DNA of 64,000 nt. Source: Alkalispirochaeta sp. (GTDB lineage: Bacteria > Spirochaetota > Spirochaetia > DSM-27196 > Alkalispirochaetaceae). The position numbers were made by a program, and so were the translations under genes. The DNA lies in the NCBI GenBank assembly GCA_965601925.1, contig OZ271854.1:2720001-2784000 (forward strand), written 5' to 3'. This document shows positions 966-17,382 of the stretch, piece after piece; position 1 is the first letter of the stretch, and each line of letters begins with the position of its first letter. The notes under the pieces are model-generated. The model was not told where the DNA came from and did no database searches. It saw nothing but the letters and a program-made list of their open reading frames with translations.

Positions 966-3242
966 TTACTCCTTCGCCGTCGATGCGTCGGTCGGCTCGT
1001 CGAATACGATCGTCGCACCCGGAAGCTCGATCACGTCCCCAGCCTCCAAGGTACGTTTTGTGTAGCGCCGGTTGTTGACCGTTACCGGCTGGGCGCTTAC
1101 GACGGTGTAGGTGCCGCGCTTCTCGTCGTGGACGATCGTGGCGTGGCGCTCCAACATGTCGGGGGAGCCTGCAATCGTCACGTCCGCCTCGGCACTCGCG
1201 CCGATGACCGTCTGCGGTCCCGACAGATCGAGCACCTTGGTCGAACCTCCCTGCGCGCCTAAGATTTCGAGGTTTGCCGCACTCCGCCCGCGGCGCGCCC
1301 GCAGAAGCGTCAACAACCACGCCAGGAGCGGAGCGGCGAGGATCGGAACGAGATAGATGAAGCCGAAGTCGTCGCGCGGAAGGCCGAAGATAGTACCGGC
1401 AAAGTAGCGCCGTTCGGCATCGACCGTCCGACCCGGCACCGCGACTTCGATGCGCACGGTCCGGAAATCGGCCGGCGAGATACCGGCGCGGTACCGGATG
1501 CGGTATTCGGTGAGGATCCGCTCGCGAATCAGGGTGTATACCGACTGGAGTTCCGCCGCATCGGCGGCGTCGAAGACCAACCCTCCCGCCGAGGCGGCGA
1601 TCTCTCCCAATAGAGGTTCGCCGCCGCCGGCGAAGTCTATCGCAAACACGCTTATCCCGGCGCGCTCGACAGCGGCCAACGTCTCCTCAATCGAGACCGA
1701 CCGGTCGCCGAACTCCGGATGGGGGCGACCGCTGTTGGCTGCAAAGGGGAAGTTCTCGCCGTCGGAGAGAATGATGAGCGCGCGACGTCCTCCTGCGTCC
1801 TCCAGATCGGCGGCGGCGGTCATAACGGCGCGAAAGAGTTCGGTGTATGCCTCGTCCGGTTCGGGGCGTTCGATCTCCTCAAAGATGAGATCGATCGTCC
1901 GCGGCGATTCCGTCGGCCCCGTGAGGAGGCGATAGCGCGTGTTGAAGGTCGCCAAAGCAAAGCGGTCGTTCGGCGTATCGATCTGATTCAGGAATTGCCT
2001 CATCGCCGATCCGACGGCGGCCATGCGGGTCGCTCCGCGCTCCTCGGTCGGTCTCCCGCCTATGGTGTCGTACATGCTGCCGGAGTTGTCGACCAGAAAG
2101 AAGAAGGTCACGCCGTCCTCTTCGTTGGCGCGTTCGTCCACCGAAATGAGCTCAACGGCGCCGAGCTCACCGCCGTCGGGTGCCTCGTACACCCGCATGT
2201 CGTCGGCGGTCAGCCCCGGTACGGGCCGCCCCGCGGAATCGGTAATCGATGCGTATAGGTCGATCTGTTGGTGGGTGACCAGGCGATCGATGTCGATCTG
2301 AGCGGGGCGGACGCTCTGTGCCGACAGGACGTCGACGCCGACGCCGCCCACCAACAGCGCTGCGGCCAGTATGAGCGGACGGAAGAGCAGCTTGGCGGAC
2401 CCGATCTGAAGCACATCGCCGAACTTGAGAAATCCCGAACCGTCTTCCGGTATCGCCTCGTCGTTGCGCTTGATCTCGTTCCCGTCGGCGGAGGGATAGA
2501 TTGCCAGTTCGCCTCCCTGCTCGCGAATCTCCGCGTGGCGTTCGGCGACTCGGCGATATCCCGGGATGCATACGTCGCTTCCCGCCCACTCGCCGATAAG
2601 TACGCGACGCTGGTTCAGAACAAACTCGGACCCCTTGCGCGGACCGTTGAGGAGACGGAGCATTCCCGTGGTCTGTCGATCCTCCACGAGGCTGTACATC
2701 GCGCTGACCAGAAGGCCGTAGACGACGACACCGATGGGACGCGCGTACTCTCGGGCGATGATGCGCGGCGCGATCTCGATCGCGAAGCCGCCGGCAAGCC
2801 CGCCGAGGAGTCCGCCTGCCAGCCCCCCGAAGGTGCGGCGCACGGAGCGGCGCCGCACACCCTCCGATCCGCCGACCGCCATCCCGAGTATCGCCCAACC
2901 GGCCGCGCGCGAGGCGGCGACTCCGACGGCGCCGAGCTGTGCGAAAAACAGGAGTGCTACCTGCCCCAGGACGAAACCGGCGGCACCCCCGACGGCACCG
3001 GTTGCCGCGCCGATGAGCGCGCCGCCGGCTACTCTGCGACGCACCCCGGCGACCATTCCGTCGATCGCACCGAAAAACGCGCCGAAGATGAGACCGAATG
3101 TGGCGCCCGAGGCGAGGCTGAAGGCGAGATACGATGGGAATCGCGACTGGAGCACGAGCATCGTCTCGAGGACGGGCCACGCCGCCGCACCGCCCAAGAG
3201 ACCCATTGCAAGGTAGACGAGTCGTCGCATTGCGTGTGACAT
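966..3242 (-). CDS. Membrane protein: multi-TM N-terminus, FHA, TM, VWA, TM, FHA
   Basis: Gly/Ala-rich hydrophobic helices in residues ~1-185. FHA-like segments RVLIGE...AERHAEI...GDVLQIG and TVIGA...LERHATI...GDVIEL. VWA MIDAS motif VDNSGSM plus ILSDG. Confidence 0.85.
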   Translation of the reverse strand: MSHAMRRLVYLAMGLLGGAAAWPVLETMLVLQSRFPSYLAFSLASGATFGLIFGAFFGAIDGMVAGVRRRVAGGALIGAATGAVGGAAGFVLGQVALLFFAQLGAVGVAASRAAGWAILGMAVGGSEGVRRRSVRRTFGGLAGGLLGGLAGGFAIEIAPRIIAREYARPIGVVVYGLLVSAMYSLVEDRQTTGMLRLLNGPRKGSEFVLNQRRVLIGEWAGSDVCIPGYRRVAERHAEIREQGGELAIYPSADGNEIKRNDEAIPEDGSGFLKFGDVLQIGSAKLLFRPLILAAALLVGGVGVDVLSAQSVRPAQIDIDRLVTHQQIDLYASITDSAGRPVPGLTADDMRVYEAPDGGELGAVELISVDERANEEDGVTFFFLVDNSGSMYDTIGGRPTEERGATRMAAVGSAMRQFLNQIDTPNDRFALATFNTRYRLLTGPTESPRTIDLIFEEIERPEPDEAYTELFRAVMTAAADLEDAGGRRALIILSDGENFPFAANSGRPHPEFGDRSVSIEETLAAVERAGISVFAIDFAGGGEPLLGEIAASAGGLVFDAADAAELQSVYTLIRERILTEYRIRYRAGISPADFRTVRIEVAVPGRTVDAERRYFAGTIFGLPRDDFGFIYLVPILAAPLLAWLLTLLRARRGRSAANLEILGAQGGSTKVLDLSGPQTVIGASAEADVTIAGSPDMLERHATIVHDEKRGTYTVVSAQPVTVNNRRYTKRTLEAGDVIELPGATIVFDEPTDASTAKE

Positions 3243-3243
3243 G

Positions 3244-4869
3244 TTACTCCTCCTGTGGGTCGAGCCCGACCTCGATGACGAGGCGGCTTTCCTCGGCCTG
3301 TATCATAAGGCTGAATACTTGCGTGGCGTACCCTTCGTGGCTGAACCGGAAACGGTGCACTTCGCCGCTACGCAGTTGAAATGAAAGCGCCGGCGTGAAG
3401 GCGAGCCAGCGGTCGCCGATCAGTATCGAAACGCGCGTACCGTCACCGATAAGGCGTCCGGTTTCGCGATCGACAACGGTGAAATCGACCTCCAACGGCA
3501 ACCTCGGGCGCTCGACGAACTCTGCCGTGACGTGGTACGCATCCACTCGGCGACCGGGAATCACCAGGCGGGTCGCGCTTCGCTCCCTCAACGAAGGGAG
3601 TGCGAACGACTCCCACCATACGATACTCCCGTTGGAAACCTTTACGCGGTAGGCGCCGGGGGTAAACTGGGCTCGGCGAGCGCGAAACACGTAGAACCGT
3701 TCGGTCTCTTCCTCCGGCACGATACGAAACGTCAACTCGCCCCCCGGTGCCTCGGGAATCTCCTCACCGTCGTCGACGAATACGGCGCCGGTTAGACGGA
3801 TCGCATCACGGTCGCGATCGGCCTTGAGCACGCGTGCGGTTACCTCGAGCGCTCCGTAGCGCGCGGGCCGGAAGAGTTCGCGATGGTACCCTCGGACAAA
3901 GAGGAGCCCGACGCCCAACGATAGGAGGAGCGCGGCCGCAACGCCCGCCGCGACGGCGAGTCTCGATCGGCGTTGCGGGAGTGCCTCCGCCTGTTCCTCG
4001 GTAAGATAACGACGGATCGTCTCGTCGCTGCGCTCGTTGGCTCCGATACGGTAGCGCCGATTGATGCGTGACGCGACTCGTTCCAGATGGGAGAATCGTC
4101 TGTCCGGTCGCGCCTTGAGCATCCGCGCCACGAGGCGCGCGACAAACGGTGAGACTTTGGGGTTGATGCGCCGCGGCGGCGTGTAGCGACCGCGTTGGAT
4201 ACGCGCAATTACCTCGGGAGTGAATGAACCGGGGTAGGGGCGCTTGCCGGTAACCATCTCGTAGAGTACGACGCCCAACGAGTAGATATCGGCGCGCTTG
4301 TCCACCGAGCGCGTACTACGAAACTGCTCGGGTGCCATATAACTCGGAGTACCGAGGGTCATTCCGTCGCGCGTCAGATCGGATTGCTCCTCGCCGCCGT
4401 GAATCGTGGCGATGCCGAAGTCGACGAGTTTTACCTCTCCCTCGTTGGAGATCAGGATGTTGGCGGGCTTTATGTCGCGGTGGACGACACCTTTATCGTG
4501 GGCGTAGGCCAGGGCGCGACACACTTCGCGCAGGATAAGAAGCGCGATTCCGTTCGGAAGATAGCGGCGCTGCCGGATCAGTGCGTCTAAGGACATCCCG
4601 TCGACGTACTCGAGCACGATGTAGTACGAAGAACCCTCGCGAAAGTGGTCGTATACGTCGACGATCGCGTCGTTACGCAGGTCCATCATGATCTGCGCTT
4701 CGCGACGAAAGCGCTCGCGAATATCGGCGTTACCCCGTAAGGTGAGCTTTTTGATGATGACCGTGCGTTCCAAGGTGGGATGACGCGCCGTATACACCGC
4801 GCCCATGCCGCCCTGGGCCAGGCGCGAGAGCACCTTGTACTTTCCGATCGATTCAACCGTCTTTGCCAT
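3244..4869 (-). CDS. Hanks-type Ser/Thr protein kinase with TM helix and C-terminal extracytoplasmic domain
   Basis: Motifs QGGMGAVY, IIKKL, HRDIKPAN, DFG, GTPSYMAPE and DIYSLG. TM segment LAVAAGVAAALLLSLGVGLLFV. Start placed at ATG 4869 (MAKTVE). Confidence 0.95.
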   Translation of the reverse strand: MAKTVESIGKYKVLSRLAQGGMGAVYTARHPTLERTVIIKKLTLRGNADIRERFRREAQIMMDLRNDAIVDVYDHFREGSSYYIVLEYVDGMSLDALIRQRRYLPNGIALLILREVCRALAYAHDKGVVHRDIKPANILISNEGEVKLVDFGIATIHGGEEQSDLTRDGMTLGTPSYMAPEQFRSTRSVDKRADIYSLGVVLYEMVTGKRPYPGSFTPEVIARIQRGRYTPPRRINPKVSPFVARLVARMLKARPDRRFSHLERVASRINRRYRIGANERSDETIRRYLTEEQAEALPQRRSRLAVAAGVAAALLLSLGVGLLFVRGYHRELFRPARYGALEVTARVLKADRDRDAIRLTGAVFVDDGEEIPEAPGGELTFRIVPEEETERFYVFRARRAQFTPGAYRVKVSNGSIVWWESFALPSLRERSATRLVIPGRRVDAYHVTAEFVERPRLPLEVDFTVVDRETGRLIGDGTRVSILIGDRWLAFTPALSFQLRSGEVHRFRFSHEGYATQVFSLMIQAEESRLVIEVGLDPQEE

Positions 4870-5899
4870 CGAAGATTCCCTCGTCGTAAGCAAGCTCCAC
4901 TACGTCACGCTCCGGGTCAAATCGGCGATTCGCCGGCGGGAGCGCGACGATCAAGCGCGAAGGATTATGAAACTGCACGTACCGGCCGCCGGCCCGCAAC
5001 GCGTAGCGTCCCGTCACCGGCCGGTGCCCTCCCAGATGGATCGCCTCGCCGTCGGCGCAGTGGGGAAGGAAATGGGCGAGCGTCGCCGCCACGCTCCCAT
5101 CCTCTGCGGCGTCGTTGTCCGTCCAGGTGAGTCCCTCGACGACCTCCGGCCGATCGCGATACTCGACGATCTCCTCGCTCAAAAAGGGGCGCATCGGTTC
5201 GGCGTGCGTCACCACGTAGCGCGTACCGACGGCCATGAGCGGTAACGACTTCTCGAACCGGTACACCGCCTCGGTCGCCTCGCCGCGGTAAAACCGTTGC
5301 ATATACGCGGCAACCATCGCACCCTCATACACAAACTTGCCGAAACGGTGGTTCCCGTCTCCCTCTTCGTTCGTAATATTCTCGTGATTTCCTTTGAGAC
5401 CGTGGACGCGGTCGGGATATGCCCTCTTGAGGAGCGCCACGGTCCTGAGGACCGCGAGACTCTCATACATCTCCTCATCCATCGCATCGTGAACGCGATA
5501 CCCATCGGTAAACTCCTCGAAGGCGCGTATCCATCGACGACGCGCACGCGCCTCACCGTGGACGTAATCGCCTACCATGACCAACTGTGCCCGGTCGGCG
5601 TCGATCGCGGACAGGAGCGGTGTGTCGATTCCGTGTTCGGGAAACGAGGTGGATAGCACCGTCGTGACGAGATCGATCCGCGCGTGGATATCGGGAAGAA
5701 CCACCGCCGGAAGCTCCGGCCGCAGGTGAACGAGTCCTCCGGGGCGGCCGTTCGTATCGCGGGGACGGAGCGAGGCGTCTTCCTCGGCAAGAGCAGTGCA
5801 CGCGCCTTCCATATCCGAGGTAAGTTCTTCGGCCGACGGAGGCGTCGTGTCGGCCGCGATGCGTTGTAACCGGTCGATGACGGCGTTCAGATCGCCCAT
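4853..5899 (-). CDS. Calcineurin-like metallophosphoesterase, putative protein phosphatase
   Basis: Ordered motifs DIH, GDYVHG, GNHE, THA and GH. Overlaps the kinase start by 17 nt. Confidence 0.85.
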   Translation of the reverse strand: MGDLNAVIDRLQRIAADTTPPSAEELTSDMEGACTALAEEDASLRPRDTNGRPGGLVHLRPELPAVVLPDIHARIDLVTTVLSTSFPEHGIDTPLLSAIDADRAQLVMVGDYVHGEARARRRWIRAFEEFTDGYRVHDAMDEEMYESLAVLRTVALLKRAYPDRVHGLKGNHENITNEEGDGNHRFGKFVYEGAMVAAYMQRFYRGEATEAVYRFEKSLPLMAVGTRYVVTHAEPMRPFLSEEIVEYRDRPEVVEGLTWTDNDAAEDGSVAATLAHFLPHCADGEAIHLGGHRPVTGRYALRAGGRYVQFHNPSRLIVALPPANRRFDPERDVVELAYDEGIFDGKDG

Positions 5900-6430
5900 C
5901 TACGATTGTACGATCGTCTTGTTGACCTCGATGAAATCGTCGGCGAGCACCTTGGTGACGTCGGTCAACAGCTCTTCTTCTACCTCGGGTTCGAGCTCGT
6001 CGATCGTTACGGCGATCATGTACACCGCCGAGCTGGATTTGATCGGTCCGTTCGTGAACGTCGCGACGGAGTCCACTGCAACGTCCTCTTTTAAGGCCGT
6101 CGCATCGGCGCTCGAATGGTCGGGCACGTCCCGTCGAATCCCGATCGAGGTGTAGTCTACCGTCCTCTTGTCGTCGACCAGCGGTCCGACCGTCAATAGC
6201 GAGCCCGAGTAGGTCAGAAAGAGCGCTCCGCGCTCCTCCGTGGCGCCGAACTCCTCGATCTCCTCCATCCCCTTCTCCGCGACACGCTGCTCGAAGATCT
6301 CCTTCTTCTCGAGCCACGCCGAAGCGAGACGCTCCATCGACTCCTCATTTTCGGGGAGTCCCGATGTCTTTGTTATATTCCGAATGTGATCCCGTACGGC
6401 GTCGGGAACCTTGTCCATGTGTTCGCCCAT
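5900..6430 (-). CDS. Acidic hypothetical protein (176 aa), paralogue of the N-terminal domain of 6508..7398
   Basis: AGGAG SD before ATG 6430. Its stop codon directly abuts the phosphatase ATG. Shares WLEK, RGA..LTYSGSL..GP and R.DVP with the divergent gene. Confidence 0.85.
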   Translation of the reverse strand: MGEHMDKVPDAVRDHIRNITKTSGLPENEESMERLASAWLEKKEIFEQRVAEKGMEEIEEFGATEERGALFLTYSGSLLTVGPLVDDKRTVDYTSIGIRRDVPDHSSADATALKEDVAVDSVATFTNGPIKSSSAVYMIAVTIDELEPEVEEELLTDVTKVLADDFIEVNKTIVQS

Positions 6431-6507
6431 AGAAACTCCTTTCTTGTGTGATACATTTTTCAACATGGCGCAGAATAGTCCCGAATTCCACAATCGAGAG
6501 GACGAGT

Positions 6508-7398
6508 ATGGCGAAGTTTGACGAATTGCCCGAATCGATACGGAGACACCTCGTTTCCTTGGCCGAAGAGACCGATATCACGCCCGCCGAGACGGCGCTG
6601 GAGCGCGTAACCGACAACTGGCTCGAGAAGCGTCGCCTGTACACCGAGCAAACCGAAGCCTTGGCGATGGTCGCCCAGACGCGCTTTGCCGCCGACGACC
6701 GGCGCGGAGCGATGCTCCTCACATACTCGGGATCACTCATTTCGATCGGACCCGTCGGCGATTCGGGGCGGCGGCTGGAGTACGCGAGCATCAAGCTGCG
6801 CACCGACGTACCGGGCCTTCTCAAGGGCGACGATGTCGGGATCGCGCAGGAGATCGTCGTCGATCGCCCGGCCGTGTTCGAGAGTGCGCCTCTCGCACGC
6901 AGCTCCGAAGTATTGTCGATCGTGTCCTTCGGACCGAAGGTGTCGGCCGGCGAACAGTCCGAGCGGCTCCGGCAGGCGATGCTCTTTCTTACCAACGGGT
7001 TCGTTCAGGCGAACCAGACGCTCTCGGTCGCCGGCGGCGCGTATCCCGACCAGTTTACGATGCGGGCGATGATCAAGAGCGTCGCGGCGCATAACGATAC
7101 GACGCAGACGGCGGCCAAAGCGATCATAGACGACTTTTTGGGTACCGTAGAGGCGGGCGTGCTCCTCGGCAAGCGCGTATCGATCGGCGGCCTCGGCCGC
7201 GTGGAGCTATCCGTCAAACCGGCCCGCAAGGCGCGCATGGGGCGCAACCCCGCCACCGGTGAGGAGATTCTTATCTCCTCGAAACCCGCCGTCTCCGCGC
7301 CTAAGATGAGTTTCGGGAGTGCGTTCAAAGAGCGGTCGTCCCACGTGCCGCCGGGGCGTATACGACCCGATCTCGCCGAGGATGAAAGCGGCTCGTAG
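6508..7398 (+). CDS. Unknown N-terminal domain fused to a C-terminal HU/IHF-family DNA-binding domain
   Basis: GAGGA SD before ATG 6508. The C-terminal ~95 aa contain VSIGGLG and ARKARMGRNPATGEEI, the HU arm signature. Confidence 0.85.
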   Translation: MAKFDELPESIRRHLVSLAEETDITPAETALERVTDNWLEKRRLYTEQTEALAMVAQTRFAADDRRGAMLLTYSGSLISIGPVGDSGRRLEYASIKLRTDVPGLLKGDDVGIAQEIVVDRPAVFESAPLARSSEVLSIVSFGPKVSAGEQSERLRQAMLFLTNGFVQANQTLSVAGGAYPDQFTMRAMIKSVAAHNDTTQTAAKAIIDDFLGTVEAGVLLGKRVSIGGLGRVELSVKPARKARMGRNPATGEEILISSKPAVSAPKMSFGSAFKERSSHVPPGRIRPDLAEDESGS

Positions 7399-7829: not shown

Positions 7830-9041
7830 ATGCAGGACCTTATGGGTAGTGAAGATCACGCCACCGTCTGTTACGGAACGTCTGCTCCCCACGCGTGGAA
7901 CGCGCACGTGGGATCCTATCGCGTCGAGCTCAATCACCATCCCGGCGACCCGCCGAATGTCCGTCGAATAACCGCGCGCTCGGGTGACGGCGGGTGTGTC
8001 GTCGAGATTGCGCCGTCGAAAGGGTTGTCGTTCCGTTCCGCGCGCTTCGGCGATCAGGAGCTGTTTTGGGAGCCTCCGCTTCCCAATTTGCCCGATCCCG
8101 AGGAGATCGATTTGGCCGGTACGGTCTGGATCGACGGCACGGAACACCGCGGCGCGGCGTGGGTGCGGTACTTCGCCGCCAGCGTCGAACTCTTGGGGCT
8201 GGACCATTGGGGTATGCACGACCGCCGCGGTGCGACGCTCCACGGCAACGCCTCGATGATTCCCGTTGAGCATGTGACATTTCGAGAGAGAGGCGACGAG
8301 ATTGAGATTTCGGGAGCGTTTCATATCGCCGACCCGGTGGATGTGCTCCCCGGACCGAATCGTCGACCGTACTACCGCGTCGCGCGGACGATACGTATCC
8401 ACGGGGCGAGGAGATCGCTGTATCAGCGCGACCGCATTACCAACCTCTCCGACGACCCCAAAACGCCCGATTGGGGGTATCACGTGCAACTTCGCCCCGA
8501 GCCGGGAAGTCGGTATCTGGTGCCGGCGCGCAGCACGCATCCGCGCCGCAGTCCCGGTGAGCCGCCGCCGGCGGACGCCGATACGTGGCGTCCCGTCGTC
8601 GATGCGACCACGCGCCGCGAACGCGGGTATGTACACCGCGATGTGTTGCGTGCGGCGGCGTTTCCCGACGGTTCGCCGGGGGTCGAGACGTTGCTCCTCC
8701 ACCCTCACGGCACCGGTGTGGCCTGTACTATCCCGCCGGCGTCCTACACGCTCTCGTGGTTTTCGTCGGGAGGTGCGAACGATCCGACCTTCTCGCTCCC
8801 GACGGGACCGAACGGAGAGCTTCTCCCCATCTTTGATCGTAACTGGGACGGAGTAGGACCCGAGATCGGTGCCAGCGCCCTCGACGGCGACGGCGATATC
8901 GACCCCTCCGTCGCACCGCACCGTCTGGAGCCCGGTGACTCCTTCGATCTGCAGCTTCTCCTGCGATTAGTCGATAAGGATGAAGCGGCGCGTATCGGCG
9001 ATCGGATTCTCCGTTATCGCGGGGGGACGACGGACCGATAG
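7830..9041 (+). CDS. DUF4432-like protein, aldose 1-epimerase superfamily
   Basis: Motifs LHGNAS, RDRITNL, YHVQL and GVGPE, in a sugar-metabolism context. Confidence 0.7.
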   Translation: MQDLMGSEDHATVCYGTSAPHAWNAHVGSYRVELNHHPGDPPNVRRITARSGDGGCVVEIAPSKGLSFRSARFGDQELFWEPPLPNLPDPEEIDLAGTVWIDGTEHRGAAWVRYFAASVELLGLDHWGMHDRRGATLHGNASMIPVEHVTFRERGDEIEISGAFHIADPVDVLPGPNRRPYYRVARTIRIHGARRSLYQRDRITNLSDDPKTPDWGYHVQLRPEPGSRYLVPARSTHPRRSPGEPPPADADTWRPVVDATTRRERGYVHRDVLRAAAFPDGSPGVETLLLHPHGTGVACTIPPASYTLSWFSSGGANDPTFSLPTGPNGELLPIFDRNWDGVGPEIGASALDGDGDIDPSVAPHRLEPGDSFDLQLLLRLVDKDEAARIGDRILRYRGGTTDR

Positions 9042-9111
9042 GGCGCCGTCGATACTCGATGTAACGGCATCCCACCCGCGGAGCAAGAGACTACGATTGT
9101 TCGCTTTGTGC

Positions 9112-9140
9112 TTGACCCGTGGAGTATTCCCCTGTACTGT
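9112..9140 (+). promoter_or_regulatory. Sigma70-type promoter of the ROK operon
   Basis: TTGACC (9112-9117), 17 bp, TACTGT (9135-9140). Confidence 0.6.
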
Positions 9141-9175
9141 TAGTTTATTCGTTGAATGAACTAACAGTACAGGGG
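9129..9175. promoter_or_regulatory. Palindromic ROK/XylR-type operator
   Basis: 22-bp inverted arms with one mismatch: CCCCTGTACTGTTAGTTTATTC-gtt-GAATGAACTAACAGTACAGGGG. The core resembles XylR operators and lies directly before a ROK gene. Confidence 0.75.
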
Positions 9176-9176
9176 G

Positions 9177-10211
9177 GTGCCCATCGATATGGCGGTGCAG
9201 GATCGTATCCGACGCACGAATCTATCTCGCATTCTCCACCTACTGCGGCGCTTCGGATCCGCGTCACAGGCGGAACTCGCCCTACGTACCGGACTACAAC
9301 CTTCGACCGTCTCGAATCTGGTACGCGAGTTGCGTCTCGGAGAGTACGTGGTCAGCCTGGGGCGCGGCGCATCGAGCGACCAAGGCGGTAAGCGTCCGAC
9401 GCTACTCGCCCTGAACGGGAAGCGCGGCGTCTATATCGGTCTGCTATGGGAGGCGGGCGTCGTCGCGTGGACGATAGTGGATCTTTCGGGCGGCATTGGT
9501 GCTTTGACGAGAGGGGCGGTGCGACACGAGACGCTCGACCCTTCACAGTCACGGACGCCCGAGGAGGTTCTCGCCGAGCTTGCCGGTAGCGCCGCGAATG
9601 ATCTCGGCGGCAGTGTACCGATTCTGGGAGTCGGGCTCGCCGTCGGGAGTGTCGTCGACCGCCACGGCGCGATTCGGCCTTCGGCGGACTTTTCGTGGGC
9701 TCTTCGGGAACCGGCCGCCGAGCTGAAGCGCCTCTTTGCCGTGGACGACTCGGTGCCGATAACCGTCGAGAATGATGCGAATTGTGTCGCCCTCTCGGCG
9801 GTCCGACGTCGAATTGGGTACGAAGACGGCTCGACGCCCGAGTCGCTGTTGGCGGTGCTCATTACCGATGCCCCGTTGTCGGCCGGGGTCGGGTTACTCA
9901 TCGATGATGAGCTCATTCGCGGGCGTACCGGGAGCTCGGGCGAACTCTTACCGGCGGGCCACGACCATGCGACGGACGATGTCGACCGGGCGCTCGCGGC
10001 GGCGCTGCGCCTCATCGATCCCGACGAGGTCGTTCTGGCGCGACCGGCGACGATATCCCTTTCTCAGCTGTCGCGCTCGCGCGTTGCGCTCGGCGATACG
10101 CCGTTGTACGAGGTCGATCCGGTGGACTCCATTCTCGACGGCGCCGTTGAGCTCGCCTTTCGAGCAAGCGTTCGTCATATCGTACAGGGAGATTTCACGC
10201 ATGCACGGTAA
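9177..10211 (+). CDS. ROK-family transcriptional regulator
   Basis: N-terminal HTH SQAELALRTGLQPSTVSNLV, linker GGKRP, ROK motifs VENDANC and G.SGE. Confidence 0.9.
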   Translation: MPIDMAVQDRIRRTNLSRILHLLRRFGSASQAELALRTGLQPSTVSNLVRELRLGEYVVSLGRGASSDQGGKRPTLLALNGKRGVYIGLLWEAGVVAWTIVDLSGGIGALTRGAVRHETLDPSQSRTPEEVLAELAGSAANDLGGSVPILGVGLAVGSVVDRHGAIRPSADFSWALREPAAELKRLFAVDDSVPITVENDANCVALSAVRRRIGYEDGSTPESLLAVLITDAPLSAGVGLLIDDELIRGRTGSSGELLPAGHDHATDDVDRALAAALRLIDPDEVVLARPATISLSQLSRSRVALGDTPLYEVDPVDSILDGAVELAFRASVRHIVQGDFTHAR

Positions 10212-11439
10212 TATCTTGGTCGGTCAATCCGGTGGACCCACGGCGGTGATCAACGCCAGTTTGGCGGGCGTGCTGCGGGCGGCGCGGACGGCGGGGTTCG
10301 GTGATGGTGACGGTTCGATCTACGGTATGCGCTTTGCGATCGAGGGGTTTTTGGAGGATCGCCTCCTCGATCTGGGAACGCTCTCACCCAACGACATCGA
10401 GCGGTTGCGCACAACTCCGGGTTCGGCCCTCGGCTCGTGCCGCTACAAGCTTGCCGATAAGGACCTTCCCCGGATTAAGGAGCGCTTGGAGCGTTGGAAC
10501 GTTCGCTATCTATTTTACATCGGCGGCAACGACACGATGGATACGATTCATAGGATCGTTGCGTACTGCGATCGGACCGGCTACACGCTGCAGGGTATCG
10601 GGATTCCCAAAACGGTGGACAACGACCTGTTTGCGACCGATCACACGCCCGGCTATCCGTCGGCGGCGCGATACGTCGTGCTGTCCGTGCAACAGGCCGG
10701 TCGGCTTGCGGCGGACATGCAACGCGTCGATCGCTTTGTAATCCATCAAACGGTCGGGCGCGACGCGGGGTGGCTCGCGGCCGCATCCGCAGTCGCGCGG
10801 CGAGCCCCCGACGAGGCGCCGCATCTCATCTACGTCCCCGAACGGCCCCTTACTCGCGAGGGGGTGCTTGCCGACGTGGAGCGGACGATCTCGGAGTACG
10901 GGTGGGCGTCAATCGTGGTCGGCGAGGGGATCGTCTGGGAGGACGGGACGCCCGTCTCCGCCGCCGCGTCAAGGGATCGATTCGACAACGTCGAGTTCGG
11001 CGCCATGAGCGGTTCGAGCGCGGCGGTCGGCCTCCACCGCCTGATATCCGAGAAGACCGGATATCGCGGTGAGTTTCAGATCCCCGAATCCATGGCAATG
11101 GCCGCCGCCGACCGCGTCGTGGAACTCGACCGAATGGAGGCGTACGGTTGCGGCGTCGAGGCCGTGTCTCGTGCCATGCGCGGAGAAAACAACGTGATGG
11201 TTACCATAGAGCGCGCGGAGTCCCGGCCGTATCGCGTGCGCTACGGCGCGGCCCCGCTCTCCGACGTCGCGGCCCGCGCCAAACCGATGCCCTCGGACAT
11301 GCTCGCCCCGGCGTGGGTGAGCGATCGATTTCTCGCCTATGTGCGACCCCTTATCGGACCACTCGATCGATACATCGATCTCGGCGCCCTTGCGCCGGCG
11401 GCGGTCGAGCGAGCGGCGGGACGAAGCGACGGAATATAA
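10201..11439 (+). CDS. pfp: PPi-dependent phosphofructokinase (PfkA family)
   Basis: QSGGPTAVIN, GGNDT and PKTVDND carry the Asp/Lys signature of PPi-dependent enzymes. Start at ATG 10201; the ORF-track extension from 9772 overlaps the ROK gene. Confidence 0.85.
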   Translation: MHGNILVGQSGGPTAVINASLAGVLRAARTAGFGDGDGSIYGMRFAIEGFLEDRLLDLGTLSPNDIERLRTTPGSALGSCRYKLADKDLPRIKERLERWNVRYLFYIGGNDTMDTIHRIVAYCDRTGYTLQGIGIPKTVDNDLFATDHTPGYPSAARYVVLSVQQAGRLAADMQRVDRFVIHQTVGRDAGWLAAASAVARRAPDEAPHLIYVPERPLTREGVLADVERTISEYGWASIVVGEGIVWEDGTPVSAAASRDRFDNVEFGAMSGSSAAVGLHRLISEKTGYRGEFQIPESMAMAAADRVVELDRMEAYGCGVEAVSRAMRGENNVMVTIERAESRPYRVRYGAAPLSDVAARAKPMPSDMLAPAWVSDRFLAYVRPLIGPLDRYIDLGALAPAAVERAAGRSDGI

Positions 11440-11451
11440 AGGAGCGCGAAG

Positions 11452-12462
11452 ATGAATACGCAGGATCGATACGGACGATTTGCGCTGTGTCGCGAGATGT
11501 TGGAGACGGTCGAAGTAGTGCGGCGATTCGACGCCAAGCGGATAGGGCGGACCGAGCTCGCCTCCGATACGGTCCTTCTCACCGGCGAAGGATCAAGCCG
11601 TATTTTTCCCGCCAAGCGTGCGATCGCCCACTCCTTACGAGAAGGGTGGCCGCAACAGATCGTGACCGAAAGCGCAACCCAGGCGTTGGAGTACGATTTG
11701 TCCGGATATCACGTGTTCATAGCCTCCAACTCGGGAAAGACCGCCGAAGGAGTGCATCTCATACGCGCGCTTCGTCGCGAGGGGGCGAAACCCATCGCCG
11801 CTATGACCGGTGTGGTCGCCCACGGTGGTACGCCGATCGCGGAAGAGGCGGACGACGCACTCGTCCTGGATTGCGGCGGCGAAGACGCCGTCGCGGCGAC
11901 CAAGTCGGTGGTGGAGCAAGCGCTCGTATACGATACGCTGTTCAGAGCCGCCAACGGGAGCCCGGGCGTCGATCGCGACGAACTCGCCGACGCGCTGCAC
12001 GCGGCACTGACGATGGATTTGAATACCGACCTCGTGAGGCGGATTGCTTCGTCCCCCGTACTCTATTTTTCGGGGCGTAACGACGGGGTGGCCGAGGAGC
12101 TTACACTCAAGACGAATGAGATCACACGCAAACGGTCGGATTTCCTCGAAGGAACGTACGCCGTGCACGGGATCGAGGAGGTCATGCAGCGTGACGAGAC
12201 GGTAATCGTCATCGATCCGTTTCCGCACCAGGAGGAGAAGTTTGCGTCGGTTCTCAAAGAGGGCGTCGGGATGAATGTGGTGGCCATCGGTCCGCGGGAG
12301 ACGATATTCCCCACCATCACCGTGCCCGACGCCGGGACGCTCTTGCCGTATGTGCTGCTTGCCGCCGGATGGAATCTGTTGGTCGAGGTCGGACTTTCTC
12401 TCACCATCGACCTGGATACTCCCCAGCGGGCGCGCAAGGTAGGTAACGAGTTTGTCGGGTGA
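11452..12462 (+). CDS. Double-SIS-domain protein, GlmS isomerase-like without glutaminase domain (putative sugar-amine-6-P deaminase)
   Basis: GEGSS, SNSGKT, VAATKS, ELTLKTNE, and C-terminal DTPQRARKV like the GlmS C-tail. AAGGAG SD. Confidence 0.8.
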   Translation: MNTQDRYGRFALCREMLETVEVVRRFDAKRIGRTELASDTVLLTGEGSSRIFPAKRAIAHSLREGWPQQIVTESATQALEYDLSGYHVFIASNSGKTAEGVHLIRALRREGAKPIAAMTGVVAHGGTPIAEEADDALVLDCGGEDAVAATKSVVEQALVYDTLFRAANGSPGVDRDELADALHAALTMDLNTDLVRRIASSPVLYFSGRNDGVAEELTLKTNEITRKRSDFLEGTYAVHGIEEVMQRDETVIVIDPFPHQEEKFASVLKEGVGMNVVAIGPRETIFPTITVPDAGTLLPYVLLAAGWNLLVEVGLSLTIDLDTPQRARKVGNEFVG

Positions 12463-12478
12463 CCGAAAGGAGCGATGA

Positions 12479-13327
12479 GTGACGACCTACCAGCTTTCCC
12501 GACGGCTCACAACCGGAGAGATACGTCGCGGTTTGTTTCCCGATGTGCTGCCGGAGTACAGCCCCGGCGAGCGATGGCTCCTATTGAGTCCCCACGACGA
12601 CGATCTTGCGATCGCCGGCGGACTATCCATCGCCGTGGCCGACGTCGAGGGTGTCGAGATGCGCGCCAGAATCGTTACCGACGGCGCAATGGGGTACACA
12701 TCGGTCGTCGGCGCCGATCGGATATGCGTCGTGCGACGAGAGGAGACCGCAGCGTGCTTTTCGATCCTCGGTATCGACGACTACGACTGGTACGACTATC
12801 CCGACGCGGGACTCGCTCCGTGGCAGGGGCGTAAAAAGGTATCGGACGGGGCGGCCTCGCCGCATACCGTCGCCGGATATACGGGGCTTCAGAACAGCAT
12901 TGTCGCCGAGCTGCGCGCGTGGCGTCCCCACCGCATGATCCTGTTGTCGCCCCAAGATTATCACCCGGATCACAAGATGGTGCATCAGGAGGCGCTGATC
13001 TCCATGTTTCACGCGCGCGGCGACATCTGGCCCGAGCTGGGTCCCCCGCTGGAGGCCGATCCGATCGTTCACGAGATAGCCGCGTACAGTCCCTTCGTCG
13101 CACCTCCGGACTTGGAGCTCCGGTGCCGAGAAGATCTGTTCCGTCGCAAGCTCGACGCCATCGCGGCGTACGCCTCGCAACGGCAAATAGCGCGGTTGGT
13201 CGAGTCCGTTCGCGCCGCCGGTCCGGTAGAGTACCTACGCACCATGCCGTTCGAGTTTTACCACGCCGCGGCCTACGCCGGATACTTTCGCCCCGGACCC
13301 TCCGGCGACGGCGCAATCGATGTTTAA
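12479..13327 (+). CDS. PIG-L/LmbE-family deacetylase
   Basis: SPHDDD, TDG, RREE, HPDH and AYASQ motifs. Confidence 0.85.
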   Translation: MTTYQLSRRLTTGEIRRGLFPDVLPEYSPGERWLLLSPHDDDLAIAGGLSIAVADVEGVEMRARIVTDGAMGYTSVVGADRICVVRREETAACFSILGIDDYDWYDYPDAGLAPWQGRKKVSDGAASPHTVAGYTGLQNSIVAELRAWRPHRMILLSPQDYHPDHKMVHQEALISMFHARGDIWPELGPPLEADPIVHEIAAYSPFVAPPDLELRCREDLFRRKLDAIAAYASQRQIARLVESVRAAGPVEYLRTMPFEFYHAAAYAGYFRPGPSGDGAIDV

Positions 13328-14333
13328 CGAGCGTCTCTTTACGCTCCGCCACCCTGCGGGCTCGACGGCTCTCATCGACGCTCGCTGCGGCGGTACGGTG
13401 CATCGCGTATCCCTCATTCCGGCTCCGGAGAGCGTTTCACAGACCGATCGGGCCGAGGATCGAGAGAACCCTTCGGCGGAGGCTATCCTCAAAGGCGACG
13501 ATCCGATCGTCGCGGACGGTCAAACGGAGTGCGATCCCGGCCTCTTTCGCGGCAGGATACTGGCGCCCTTCAACGATCGCGTCGCCGACGGAGTCTACCG
13601 ATGGCGAGGCAGACAGTTCAAGCTTCCGACCAATGATCTCGATACGGCCGACGCCATTCACGGATTTCTGTATCGTACCGAGCTCCACCGATCGGCCATA
13701 CCGGCGCCGGGCGGCGGGAGGCGGGCGAACGGGGCGACACTGGAGTTGTGCGGCGCATTGCCGGCCGACGGGCCGGATGGCGGCGGCTATCCCTTCCTCC
13801 TCGCCGTATCGATCATATACGTTCTTCGGGCGAGCGAGTTTGAGATCACCGTGCGGCTTACCAACCTCGGAGAAGACGAGGCCCCGGTCTCCATGGGGTG
13901 GCACCCGTACATCCTCCTCGCCGCGGTGGATTATGCGCCCGACGAGTATCGCTTAACGGTGCCTGCGGAGCGTTTCATCGAGGTCGACGAGCGTCTTCTT
14001 CCCACCGGCCGGACACCGACGGTCGCCGGTACGACGTTCGATTTCCGGTCACCGACTACGATAGGCGGTCGTGCCCTCGACGTGGGGTTTCCTCTCGTCG
14101 GCGACCGTCCTACCGTCTCGCTGGCGGCGGGAGACAGGATCGTACACGTGACGATGGAAGACGCCTTTCGTATGGCTCAGATTTTCGTGCCCGACGACCG
14201 CGACTCGGTCGCGATAGAGCCCGTCTCCGCTCCGGCCGACGTCTTCAATCGTCCGGAACTCGGCGTTATCGCACTGGCCGCCGGAGAGAGCGTTCGTGGG
14301 AACGCACTGGTGCGCTACGTGCGGCGCCGTTGA
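13320..14333 (+). CDS. Aldose 1-epimerase (mutarotase) family protein
   Basis: LAPFNDRV, AIHGF, GWHPY and AIEP motifs. Confidence 0.85.
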   Translation: MFNERLFTLRHPAGSTALIDARCGGTVHRVSLIPAPESVSQTDRAEDRENPSAEAILKGDDPIVADGQTECDPGLFRGRILAPFNDRVADGVYRWRGRQFKLPTNDLDTADAIHGFLYRTELHRSAIPAPGGGRRANGATLELCGALPADGPDGGGYPFLLAVSIIYVLRASEFEITVRLTNLGEDEAPVSMGWHPYILLAAVDYAPDEYRLTVPAERFIEVDERLLPTGRTPTVAGTTFDFRSPTTIGGRALDVGFPLVGDRPTVSLAAGDRIVHVTMEDAFRMAQIFVPDDRDSVAIEPVSAPADVFNRPELGVIALAAGESVRGNALVRYVRRR

Positions 14334-14403
14334 TTCCTATCGTTCGGTATCGTCCGCGCTGCGGGAGCCGATTGCCGCAGCGGTGAGTTGCAGGGCGTGC
14401 GCG

Positions 14404-15069
14404 TTACAGCTCCTTGTGGATGATCTCCCACTCCCACATGGTGCGATCTTGGCGATGGAGCGTTAGATAGTGTTCGGCAATTGCCGCCCCGTCGTAGTCT
14501 GAGTCCGGCGTGACCGGGCGGGTGATCGTTACCGTCCCGGCGTGGATGCCCTCATCGCGGAGCTCCATGTAAAGATTCTGTACCCAGTTGCGAAGTGCCG
14601 CCTTGCCGACCGAATGCGAAGCCGCGAATTGTGCGGGAAGGATTCCAAATCCGCCGCCGGTATACAGGAGCGTACCGCTCCCGCGTCGACGCATCCCCGC
14701 CAGTACCGCCTCGGTCGCGTAGAGCGCGCCGAAGAACATCGCCGGTAACGTCCGCTCCATCTCCTCCGAACCCAGTTCGCTCGGCGGCGTCTTTACCATA
14801 GTCGCGATGTTGTAGATAAGCACGTCCGGCGTTCCCATCGTCCGTTCGAGAGTCGCAAATCGATCCAACACGTCCTCACGGATCGTCGCGTCGACGCGTA
14901 GCGTCTCGACACGAGCCGATCCGAGGCGTCGCGCCTCGTCGGCGACCGCGTCCACCGTCTGGGTGGAGCGCGAGAAGAGGGCGAGGTCGAATCCCGCGCC
15001 GGCGAAGGTCCGCGCGATGTGACTGCCCATAGTGGGGCCGCATCCGACGATTGCGCATAATTGAGCCAT
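14404..15069 (-). CDS. SDR-family oxidoreductase
   Basis: Rossmann motif IVGCGPTMG, DVLIYN, TGGG, and HSVGKAAL in place of YxxxK. Confidence 0.85.
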   Translation of the reverse strand: MAQLCAIVGCGPTMGSHIARTFAGAGFDLALFSRSTQTVDAVADEARRLGSARVETLRVDATIREDVLDRFATLERTMGTPDVLIYNIATMVKTPPSELGSEEMERTLPAMFFGALYATEAVLAGMRRRGSGTLLYTGGGFGILPAQFAASHSVGKAALRNWVQNLYMELRDEGIHAGTVTITRPVTPDSDYDGAAIAEHYLTLHRQDRTMWEWEIIHKEL

Positions 15070-15129
15070 GACGGAATTGTACCAAGGAGGCGGCACCTTG
15101 TCCTCCTGCCGGTGCGACGATAGACTTAT

Positions 15130-15900
15130 GTGATCGTGGCAACGTTGGAACTCGAACCCCTCCAGATAGTCATTCTCTTGGGCGCGGGCGCGGCGGCGGG
15201 ATTCATCAATACTCTGGCCGGCGGCGGCTCGCTTCTTACCATTCCCGCATTACTCTTTGCCGGCATTCCTTCGACGGTCGCCAACGCCACAAACCGTGTA
15301 GCGGTAGTGATGCAAAGCGCCGTCGCCGCCGCTCAGTTTCGACGGCAAAACGTATTTGAGCTTCGCGAATCGCTCCCGATGCTTCTTCCCGCATTCGCCG
15401 GCTCGATCATCGGAGCCTTTATCGCCGCCGAGATCGACCCCGCCGTGTTCGATGTCGTCCTGGCGGTCGTGCTGGTGCTCATGCTCGCGACACTCTTTTT
15501 TCGGCCCGCCGATATCGCCGCCTCCGCGGCCCGCCGTTCACCTCCCCGGTGGCTCGTGATTCCGGCGTTTTTCGTCATCGGATTGTACGGCGGGTTCGTC
15601 CAAGCTGGGGTCGGCTTTCTGCTCATTCTGGGAATCAACCTCCTGTTCGGGTTCGATTTAGTCAAAACCAACGCCCTCAAGGTGCTCATCGTGGCGCTGT
15701 ACTCGCTCTTCGCCCTGGCGATCTTCGCGATATACGGACAGATTTTGTGGCTCCACGGCGTTGTCCTCGGTGTGGGAAACGTCGTCGGGGCGCTCGTGGG
15801 AGTGCGGTTGGCCGTCAAACGGGGTGCCGCCGCGGTCCGGTGGGTCATCGTCGCTGCGGTCGCCCTCACGGTGCTAAAGCTCTTCGGCGTCATCGGATAG
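15130..15900 (+). CDS. TauE/SafE-family membrane protein (sulfite exporter-like)
   Basis: AGFINTLAGGGSL, ANATN and GLYGGFVQAGVG; about 8 hydrophobic helices. Confidence 0.9.
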   Translation: MIVATLELEPLQIVILLGAGAAAGFINTLAGGGSLLTIPALLFAGIPSTVANATNRVAVVMQSAVAAAQFRRQNVFELRESLPMLLPAFAGSIIGAFIAAEIDPAVFDVVLAVVLVLMLATLFFRPADIAASAARRSPPRWLVIPAFFVIGLYGGFVQAGVGFLLILGINLLFGFDLVKTNALKVLIVALYSLFALAIFAIYGQILWLHGVVLGVGNVVGALVGVRLAVKRGAAAVRWVIVAAVALTVLKLFGVIG

Positions 15901-15950
15901 TGCTTTTGAAATACAGTTGCAGTTCGCTGAAAATGGGTTGCAATTTTTTG

Positions 15951-15978
15951 TTGACAACCGGCTGATATAGCATACCAT
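15951..15978 (+). promoter_or_regulatory. Sigma70 promoter of the PTS operon
   Basis: TTGACA (15951-15956), 16 bp, TACCAT (15973-15978). AGGAGG SD downstream. Confidence 0.55.
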
Positions 15979-15996
15979 TGTGTGCAGGAGGCACAC

Positions 15997-17382
15997 ATGG
16001 CTGCAATACAAGGTATCGTCCAGTTTTTTCTGGACCTCGGCGCTAGCGTGTTTTTGCCGGTGGTCATCTTCATCCTGGCGGTCGCATTCGGCGCCAAACC
16101 GGGAAAGGCCACTCGCAGCGCGCTCATGGTCGGCGTCGGCTTTATCGGTATCGGGTTGGTGCTGGGGGTACTCTTTGACAACCTCGGACCCGCCGCTCAG
16201 GCGATGGTCGAACGGTTCGGCATTGAGTTGAGCATCATCGACGTAGGGTGGCCCGCCTCCGCGGCGATCGCCTTCGGGTCGGACATCGCGGCGTTGATCA
16301 TACCGACGGGGATTCTTCTGAACGTCGTGCTGCTTCTCGCCAAGATCACCAAGACGATCAATATCGATATCTGGAACTTTTGGCACTTTGCCTTTGTCGG
16401 CGCCATGGTGCAGGCGATAACCGGCAACATCTGGCTGGGACTCATCTCGGCGATGATCTTTGCCTCGGTCATGCTCTTTTTTGCCGACTGGACCGCGCCG
16501 GCGGTACAGAAGCTCATGGGGATGCCGGGCATCTCGCTGCCTCACGGGTTTTCCACGGTCTTCGTCGTTCCGGCGATGATCGTCAACAAGATCATCGATG
16601 TGATTCCGGGTCTCAACTCGGTAGAGGCCGATCCCGACGCCATTAAGAAACGTTTCGGTGTCTTCGGCGAGCCGGTTCTGCAGGGCGTGGTAATCGGTGG
16701 GGTCATCGCCCTCATCGCCTATGCCGGCAACGGACCGTTCACGAGTTGGATTACGCAAGTTCTGCAGGTCGCCGTCGCGCTCGCCGCAGTCATGGTGCTC
16801 ATGCCGCGTATGGTGGCGCTCCTTATGGAGGGTCTGATACCTCTCTCCGAGGCGGCGCGGGAGTTTCTGCAAAAGCGCGCCGGAGATCGTGAAATCTACA
16901 TCGGTCTCGACTCGGCGATCGCGATCGGGCACCCGACCTCCATCGCGACGTCGCTCGTCATGGTTCCGATTACGCTGCTCTTGGCCGTGATCCTACCGGG
17001 TAATCGTGTCCTGCCGTTCGGCGACTTGGCAACAATTCCCTTTATGGTGGCCATGATGGTGCCTATCGTGCGCGGCAACGTCGTCCGTGCGACCATTACC
17101 AGCACCGTCGTAATGATTCCCACTCTCTACATTATGAACGGGATCGCCGGCGTACATAGTCAAGTGGCGCGTATGGCGAACTTTGAGTTTCCCGAGGGAG
17201 CGACGCTGATTACCAGTATGGTCGACGGCGGGAATTGGCTTGCCGGACTCTTCACGTGGGCCGCCAATAGCTTCTGGCTCGGTAACGGGCTCATTCTCGC
17301 GGCGCTGATCGTCTTTTGGGTGATGTTCAAGAAGAACACCGCCGCCTGGCACAAAATCGCCGGACTCAACGAAGACGAGTAG
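15997..17382 (+). CDS. gatC: PTS galactitol-family IIC component
   Basis: IDVGWP, INIDIWNFWH, LMPRMV..LMEGL, IGLDSA and PGNRVLPFGDLA are GatC signatures. Confidence 0.9.
   Translation: MAAIQGIVQFFLDLGASVFLPVVIFILAVAFGAKPGKATRSALMVGVGFIGIGLVLGVLFDNLGPAAQAMVERFGIELSIIDVGWPASAAIAFGSDIAALIIPTGILLNVVLLLAKITKTINIDIWNFWHFAFVGAMVQAITGNIWLGLISAMIFASVMLFFADWTAPAVQKLMGMPGISLPHGFSTVFVVPAMIVNKIIDVIPGLNSVEADPDAIKKRFGVFGEPVLQGVVIGGVIALIAYAGNGPFTSWITQVLQVAVALAAVMVLMPRMVALLMEGLIPLSEAAREFLQKRAGDREIYIGLDSAIAIGHPTSIATSLVMVPITLLLAVILPGNRVLPFGDLATIPFMVAMMVPIVRGNVVRATITSTVVMIPTLYIMNGIAGVHSQVARMANFEFPEGATLITSMVDGGNWLAGLFTWAANSFWLGNGLILAALIVFWVMFKKNTAAWHKIAGLNEDE

Follow-up and report, generated by a model that had tools for sequence, protein, structure and literature searches.

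An undescribed acidic protein domain and its HU-fused paralogue adjoin a kinase-phosphatase gene cluster in Alkalispirochaeta

RESULTS

A divergent gene pair encodes a free domain and the same domain fused to HU

We analyzed a 64,000-nucleotide stretch of the genome of Alkalispirochaeta sp. (assembly GCA_965601925.1, contig OZ271854.1, positions 2,720,001 to 2,784,000 of the forward strand), referred to here as the window, in which two divergent genes encode versions of one protein domain that we call X. The first gene (positions 5900 to 6430, minus strand) is an open reading frame (ORF) of 176 amino acids that specifies an acidic, free-standing X. The second (6508 to 7398, plus strand) is an ORF of 296 amino acids, X-HU, in which X occupies residues 1 to 176 (6508 to 7035, plus strand, delimited by BLASTP and profile-profile alignment) and is joined to an HU/IHF DNA-binding domain (PF00216; 7063 to 7335, plus strand) recognized by profile match and by its RNPxTG arm motif. 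The two genes stand head to head, with start codons 77 bp apart.

A preliminary description of this DNA had aligned the two proteins by hand without gaps, at about 51 identities (~30%), and had listed four shared blocks of residues. BLASTP recovered the same alignment (51 identities over 169 positions, 30%; 93 positives; no gaps; E of 2e-32), including all four blocks. The local score of 266 was far above those of 1,000 shuffled sequences (mean, 32; standard deviation, 5.4; maximum, 58), and profiles of the free and fused families matched over 173 columns with a probability of 100% and an E of 9e-63. The DNA of the two copies is 48.5% identical overall, and 40% at third codon positions; because identity is this low, the duplication is judged to be old. 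In the source genome, a single 5.05-Mb contig, domain X occurs in exactly these two copies.

X-HU carries a genuine HU domain

The HU fusion noted earlier was borne out by both profile and fold. PF00216 matched residues 186 to 276 of X-HU at 53.1 bits, against a curated cutoff of 22.4, and Foldseek matched the HU part to HU structures with a probability of 1.0 and a target TM of 0.73 to 0.77; its best structural matches were HU-DNA complexes. Basic arms with an intercalating proline are expected of an HU domain. The arm motif [RKH]NPxTG is kept in 106 of 120 relatives, K241, R243, R246, and the arm proline are each retained in 88 to 99% of these sequences, and the HU part is basic (median charge, +7). 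It scored 25 to 37 bits with the NCBIfam equivalog models for housekeeping HU-alpha, HU-beta, IHF-alpha, and IHF-beta, below their cutoffs of 111 to 162. On these comparisons, we regard the HU part as a genuine HU domain that lies far from the housekeeping HU and IHF models. The source genome has one other PF00216 gene besides X-HU. No membrane segment was found in X-HU.

X is an undescribed, conserved domain

Domain X is predicted to open with two helices, continue with a seven-stranded beta core, and end in a long helix. Searches of Pfam and NCBIfam returned no family for it, and structure searches, with the NucS N-terminal, PH-like, and Sm-like folds among those considered, gave no clear match, so the family check proposed in the preliminary description assigned X to no known family. 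The strong acidity ascribed to the free copy was confirmed: the window copy has a net charge of -20 and an isoelectric point of 4.4, and the median charge of 67 relatives is -23. The X part of the fusion is less acidic (median charge, -9). Fourteen residues are invariant across all clades, and within two motifs singled out earlier as conserved, LTYSGS and SS, TYSGS and S134 are invariant or almost so in both copies. The fused clade conserves R153, R155, L161, T162, N163, and G164 at sites that are acidic in free X; clade-specific positions were also sought under strict criteria, and none emerged. Literature searches, in which coverage of subscription journals was thin, found no paper on the domain or its gene cluster. 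X is a real and conserved, previously undescribed protein domain of about 175 residues.

A tree of 103 X domains (FastTree only, no formal clade test), drawn from alternate paired loci and selected further sequences, placed all 41 HU-fused domains in a single clade (support, 0.975) next to the free copies. Because the fused copies group in this way, the tree indicates that X was duplicated a single time, in a common ancestor. Free X and X-HU of the same locus are 37% identical (median), versus 53% between free copies, and the distances within the two families correlate (r of 0.88), as expected under joint vertical descent.

The architectures of X, whose listing had also been proposed, comprise free X, X-HU, X-Y, vWA-X-Y, and a distant stand-alone form. 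Y (loci L121:7442-8464 and L149 to L160; proteins P0245 to P0289) is a helical domain of ~120 amino acids, strongly conserved and matched by no Pfam family, that lies behind X or occurs alone; stand-alone Y follows a Mur ligase gene in three of three loci. The idea that Y is a degenerate HU was ruled out by profile-profile comparison (probability, 0.25%). Of six metagenome loci with X-Y, two have a Hanks-type kinase gene head to head with it; in two loci X-Y is followed by a gene of the tyrosine phosphatase family, and its remaining loci have neither kind of neighbor. The vWA fusion, P0254, was found on five contigs and is a 701-amino-acid protein with a signal peptide, a vWA domain, a membrane segment, X, and Y, in which X takes the usual place of the second FHA-like domain described below. 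A search for X fusions of 343 to 2,000 amino acids returned none, a weak test that also missed P0254. One short contig encodes X followed by DUF2442 (P0205; 276 amino acids), which may be an assembly artifact. Distant stand-alone copies (L102 to L108) lie near a pterin-binding, methyltransferase-like gene in four of seven loci, and the neighbor of the copy at L104 is an HU protein that weakly matches LysM. Genomes of one family, f52, have up to five X matches each.

Free X heads a cluster of kinase, phosphatase, and membrane FHA-like/vWA genes

Three genes lie directly downstream of free X on the same strand, in the order phosphatase, kinase, FHA-like/vWA gene. The first (4853 to 5899, minus strand) encodes a PPP-like metallophosphoesterase (PF00149) with conserved DxH, GDxxH, GNHE, and HxE motifs; its ATG abuts the stop codon of X. 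The second (3244 to 4869, minus strand) encodes a Hanks-type Ser/Thr kinase whose catalytic motifs are intact; the protein has a single membrane segment (residues 307 to 325) and a C-terminal domain that is probably extracytoplasmic. The kinase motifs HRDIKP, DFG, and VxK are conserved among 79 sequences and the phosphatase motifs DxH, GDxxH, and GNHE among 66, which predicts that both enzymes are active; the MIDAS motif described below is likewise conserved. The third gene (966 to 3242, minus strand), which is two genes in most relatives, encodes a membrane protein with a Gly-rich multipass region, a degenerate FHA-like domain, a membrane segment, a vWA domain with an intact MIDAS, another membrane segment, and a second degenerate FHA-like domain. 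Its vWA is flanked by the membrane segments at 285-303 and 629-647, or follows a signal-like segment where the gene is split, and we infer that this domain is outside the membrane. A small gene had been suspected in the interval from the kinase gene to the FHA-like gene; none was found.

In the two FHA-like domains of the membrane proteins, GR is present in 12 of 67 and 10 of 63 sequences, SxxH in 1 of 67 and 0 of 63, and [ST]NG in none. On these counts, both domains lack the motifs for phosphothreonine binding. A separate, small FHA protein keeps GR, SxxH, and [ST]NG in 8, 7, and 6 of 8 sequences, respectively. The gene for this canonical FHA protein is present in 23 of 80 loci; in the source genome it is unlinked to the cluster and is the sole PF00498 match (G000:C1:1898905-1899348, minus strand). 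Elsewhere in that genome, a distant metallophosphatase adjoins a weak kinase-like match (G000:C1:4746334-4748838, plus strand), and a kinase domain lies inside a frame of 2,262 codons (G000:C1:2307378-2308106, minus strand).

The cluster and X co-occur, and X-HU is a further layer

The free-X profile had 204 matches in GTDB; gene order was compared in the best 80, a sample that favors close relatives. A phosphatase or kinase gene follows X in 78 of the 79 loci with enough downstream DNA, and kinase, membrane FHA-like, and vWA genes all follow it in 58 of the 59 loci with at least 6.5 kb. Two X copies stand head to head in 61 of 80 loci (51 classed by script, 5 recognized from coordinates, and 5 in which the divergent X is cut or has no in-frame HU); in 2 they are convergent at the operon end, and in 17 there is no second copy within the fetched DNA. 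Tandem and unlinked X-HU copies also exist. The head-to-head order is common and not fixed. The preliminary description had proposed an old inverted duplication with this pair as its product, and its interpretation holds in part: an old duplication of an unassigned domain into free and HU-fused forms, single and in a common ancestor, stands, while a local inverted origin does not.

Among 41 close genomes, X and the FHA-like/vWA protein occur in an identical set of 24, and the phosphatase occurs in 23, 22 of them shared. X was found in 56 of 401 genomes of the phylum, a lower bound given that six further genomes hold distant copies. The membrane FHA-like protein was found in 50 genomes, every one of which belongs to the 56. 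The phosphatase was found in 87 genomes, and 51 of the 56 with X are among them. In genome family f12, a reduced operon of small FHA, phosphatase, and kinase genes is present in six of six fetched loci (L163 to L167 and L171), without X, membrane scaffolds, or X-HU. Because of these co-occurrence counts and the f12 operon, the system is best described as nested layers, with the kinase/phosphatase/FHA core innermost, X and the membrane scaffolds around it, and X-HU outermost. The full cluster is present in cultured Alkalispirochaeta alkalica DSM 8900 (L076), and X is present in cultured Spirochaeta africana.

The intergenic region and the remainder of the window

The 77 bp between the divergent genes (6431 to 6507) contain candidate overlapping promoters identified by eye: TG-A-TACATT at 6449 to 6457 on the plus strand and, on the minus strand, GTGGAA (6491 to 6486) with CATGTT (6467 to 6462). 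A consensus promoter scan did not list these candidates. ATTCCA/TGGAAT occurs in 21 of 45 related intergenic regions (highest count in shuffled sequences, ≤12), the loci being related to one another, and a TRTAnCAC-like motif also recurs among the 45. Judged by eye, these motifs would fit overlapping divergent sigma-70 promoters, which we regard as candidates.

Elsewhere in the window (7830 to 16000 and 17967 to 60582) lie genes for a DUF4432 protein, a ROK-type regulator, sugar metabolism, PTS enzyme I, an ABC transporter, formate-tetrahydrofolate ligase, a phosphorylase, homoserine dehydrogenase, and a SpoIID/TPR protein. Three long frames in these intervals had no Pfam match at an E of ≤1e-8.

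DISCUSSION

We propose, with a probability of about 0.5, that X is a coupling adaptor and that X-HU is the phospho-controlled DNA-binding output of an envelope phospho-signaling system. X likely passes the signal of the membrane kinase to DNA via X-HU, whose HU domain would supply the DNA-binding end of the relay. In the relay that we infer from genomic context, all five steps included, the outward-facing vWA and kinase C-terminal domains would sense an envelope cue, and free X would dock with the FHA-like scaffolds and kinase of the membrane complex on its inner face, a location suggested by the X-vWA fusion and by the nested occurrence of X and the scaffold genes. X-HU would then be held by X-to-X contact, in which the C-terminal helix of free X, which is acidic, may pair with a conserved Arg/hydrophobic helix in X-HU. 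Once X or X-HU is phosphorylated (candidate sites T172, T159, S75/S77, and S134), X-HU would be released or would bind DNA differently; the small canonical FHA protein is a putative reader of this state, and the phosphatase would reset the switch.

Several observations weigh against this proposal. Most X-Y loci have no adjacent kinase gene, the distant X clade stands alone among housekeeping genes in all seven of its loci, and family f12 has the kinase-phosphatase-FHA core with X in none of five genomes. Some genomes retain X and the cluster but yielded no X-HU (for example, G179, which is 94% complete on two contigs), so X-HU would not be the sole output; since free X persists in such genomes, X would also be more than a titrator of X-HU, a role suggested in the preliminary description. 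The genomes compared are related and many are incomplete, and the co-occurrence counts therefore overstate independence. Lastly, the 14 invariant residues of X look more like a putative ligand pocket than a plain adaptor surface. This last point leads to the main rival, in which X is a ligand-binding or catalytic domain for a phosphopeptide, nucleotide, or nucleic acid, with an invariant Lys/Arg/Ser/Thr pocket, and X and X-HU answer the same ligand separately without any need for contact. We hold it to be a real but unlikely alternative, at perhaps one chance in four.

Less probable still is a phosphorylation-controlled tether, that would anchor the chromosome, held by X-HU, through X to the membrane vWA/FHA-like complex, a structural rather than a gene-regulatory role. 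Such a role has been proposed for bacterial HU-CCDC81 membrane proteins in the HU survey text consulted (PMC5499826), X can be fused to a membrane vWA protein (P0254), and the distant X at L104 has an HU protein as its neighbor; the patchy distribution of X (24 of 41 close genomes) and the apparent loss of X-HU alone oppose a core function in segregation, X-HU is without a membrane segment, and its matches to HU-CCDC81 are weak, below cutoff, and confined to some relatives. We consider it improbable that the cluster is a conflict (anti-phage) system with HU or Y as effectors brought in by X in the manner of EADs, the small domains for which like-to-like coupling has been proposed in vWA-MoxR and GAP1 ternary systems, as described in the part of PMC7159879 consulted. 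As with EADs in that account, X is a small domain repeated in neighboring genes and fused to different partners, the second copy being joined to an effector or signaling domain (X-HU, adjacent in the 61 loci above, and X-Y); X also has several architectures, multiple matches per genome in f52, a patchy presence, and one fusion to a core component (P0254), and the cluster's kinase resembles the PD-T4-6 and MAD6 kinase models. Unlike EADs, X normally stands alone and is not fused to a core part, as seen both in the window and at the 80 loci, P0254 being the one vWA fusion; adjacent X copies are not mutual closest relatives, and the 41 fused copies form a clade apart from the free ones. Copies thus group by architecture and not by genome, the reverse of the EAD pattern, which is also evident in the lower identity within loci than between free copies. 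Neither a MoxR nor a GTPase core was seen, and the output of the X cluster is conserved, nearly always HU and not a variable toxin. With the PADLOC anti-phage models, X, X-HU, the phosphatase, the vWA protein, and Y had no match, and those of the kinase cover only its generic kinase domain. Searches for X gave one phage match at an E of 8 and none in plasmids, viral contigs not being scanned, so no credible phage or plasmid copy was found, and the neighbors in the window are metabolic genes. Least probable, in our estimate, is that the HU part no longer binds DNA and acts purely as a module for dimerization or protein binding. It scores far below the NCBIfam housekeeping cutoffs, and HU-CCDC81 relatives are proposed, in the same survey text, to have moved off DNA (PMC5499826); its basic charge, the retention of K241, R243, R246, and the arm proline, and the HU-DNA complexes at the top of its structural matches all argue otherwise.

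Parallels to our proposal exist in other systems. The Sulfolobus archaellum regulatory network, as presented in the portion of PMC6509490 used here, comprises the FHA protein ArnA, the vWA protein ArnB, the kinases ArnC and ArnD, and the phosphatase PP2A. The spirochete cluster likewise combines a Hanks-type kinase, a PPP-family phosphatase, and FHA and vWA proteins, and control of gene expression, the outcome of Arn (PMC6509490), is also the outcome proposed here. Unlike the cytoplasmic vWA of Arn, the spirochete vWA is probably outside the membrane; the linked FHA-like domains are membrane bound, without the phospho-binding Arg/Ser; all the genes lie in a single cluster; and no counterpart of X or X-HU is named for Arn in that portion (PMC6509490). 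X-HU resembles HU-CCDC81 and HU-HIG (PMC5499826) in having a true HU fold with extra domains attached, and differs from both, as far as the survey text consulted describes them, in that the domain joined to HU is N-terminal and cytoplasmic and also has a free paralogue. The main text of that survey contains no occurrence of kinase, FHA, vWA, or phosphatase; its supplement might list an X-HU fusion. In Mycobacterium tuberculosis, phosphorylation of HupB by a Ser/Thr kinase lowers DNA binding, according to the part of a review used here (PMC4754617). HupB is thus reported, and X-HU proposed, to be an HU protein under Hanks kinase control; unlike HupB, the main nucleoid protein and itself the target of phosphorylation, X-HU is an additional, dedicated HU, encoded next to its kinase and carrying an extra domain of its own.

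The proposal may be carried further. More speculatively, X may be a new fold that reads phosphorylation at its invariant Lys/Arg/Ser pocket, replacing the dead FHA domains, with X-HU as a dedicated Hanks-kinase response regulator built on HU; we would not put this version above one chance in four. If true, it would amount to a eukaryote-like relay from periplasm to nucleoid contained in one gene cluster. To our knowledge, bacterial Hanks kinases rarely have a named, dedicated route to DNA. Here, sensor, kinase, phosphatase, scaffolds, and putative DNA-binding output are encoded together, along with a 175-residue domain that is assigned to no family and has no clear structural match. Because X is small, appears soluble, and is present in cultured species, its structure, phosphosites, and DNA targets are directly testable. 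If X proves to be a new phospho-reader or adaptor fold, it would extend the short list of bacterial phospho-signaling domains.
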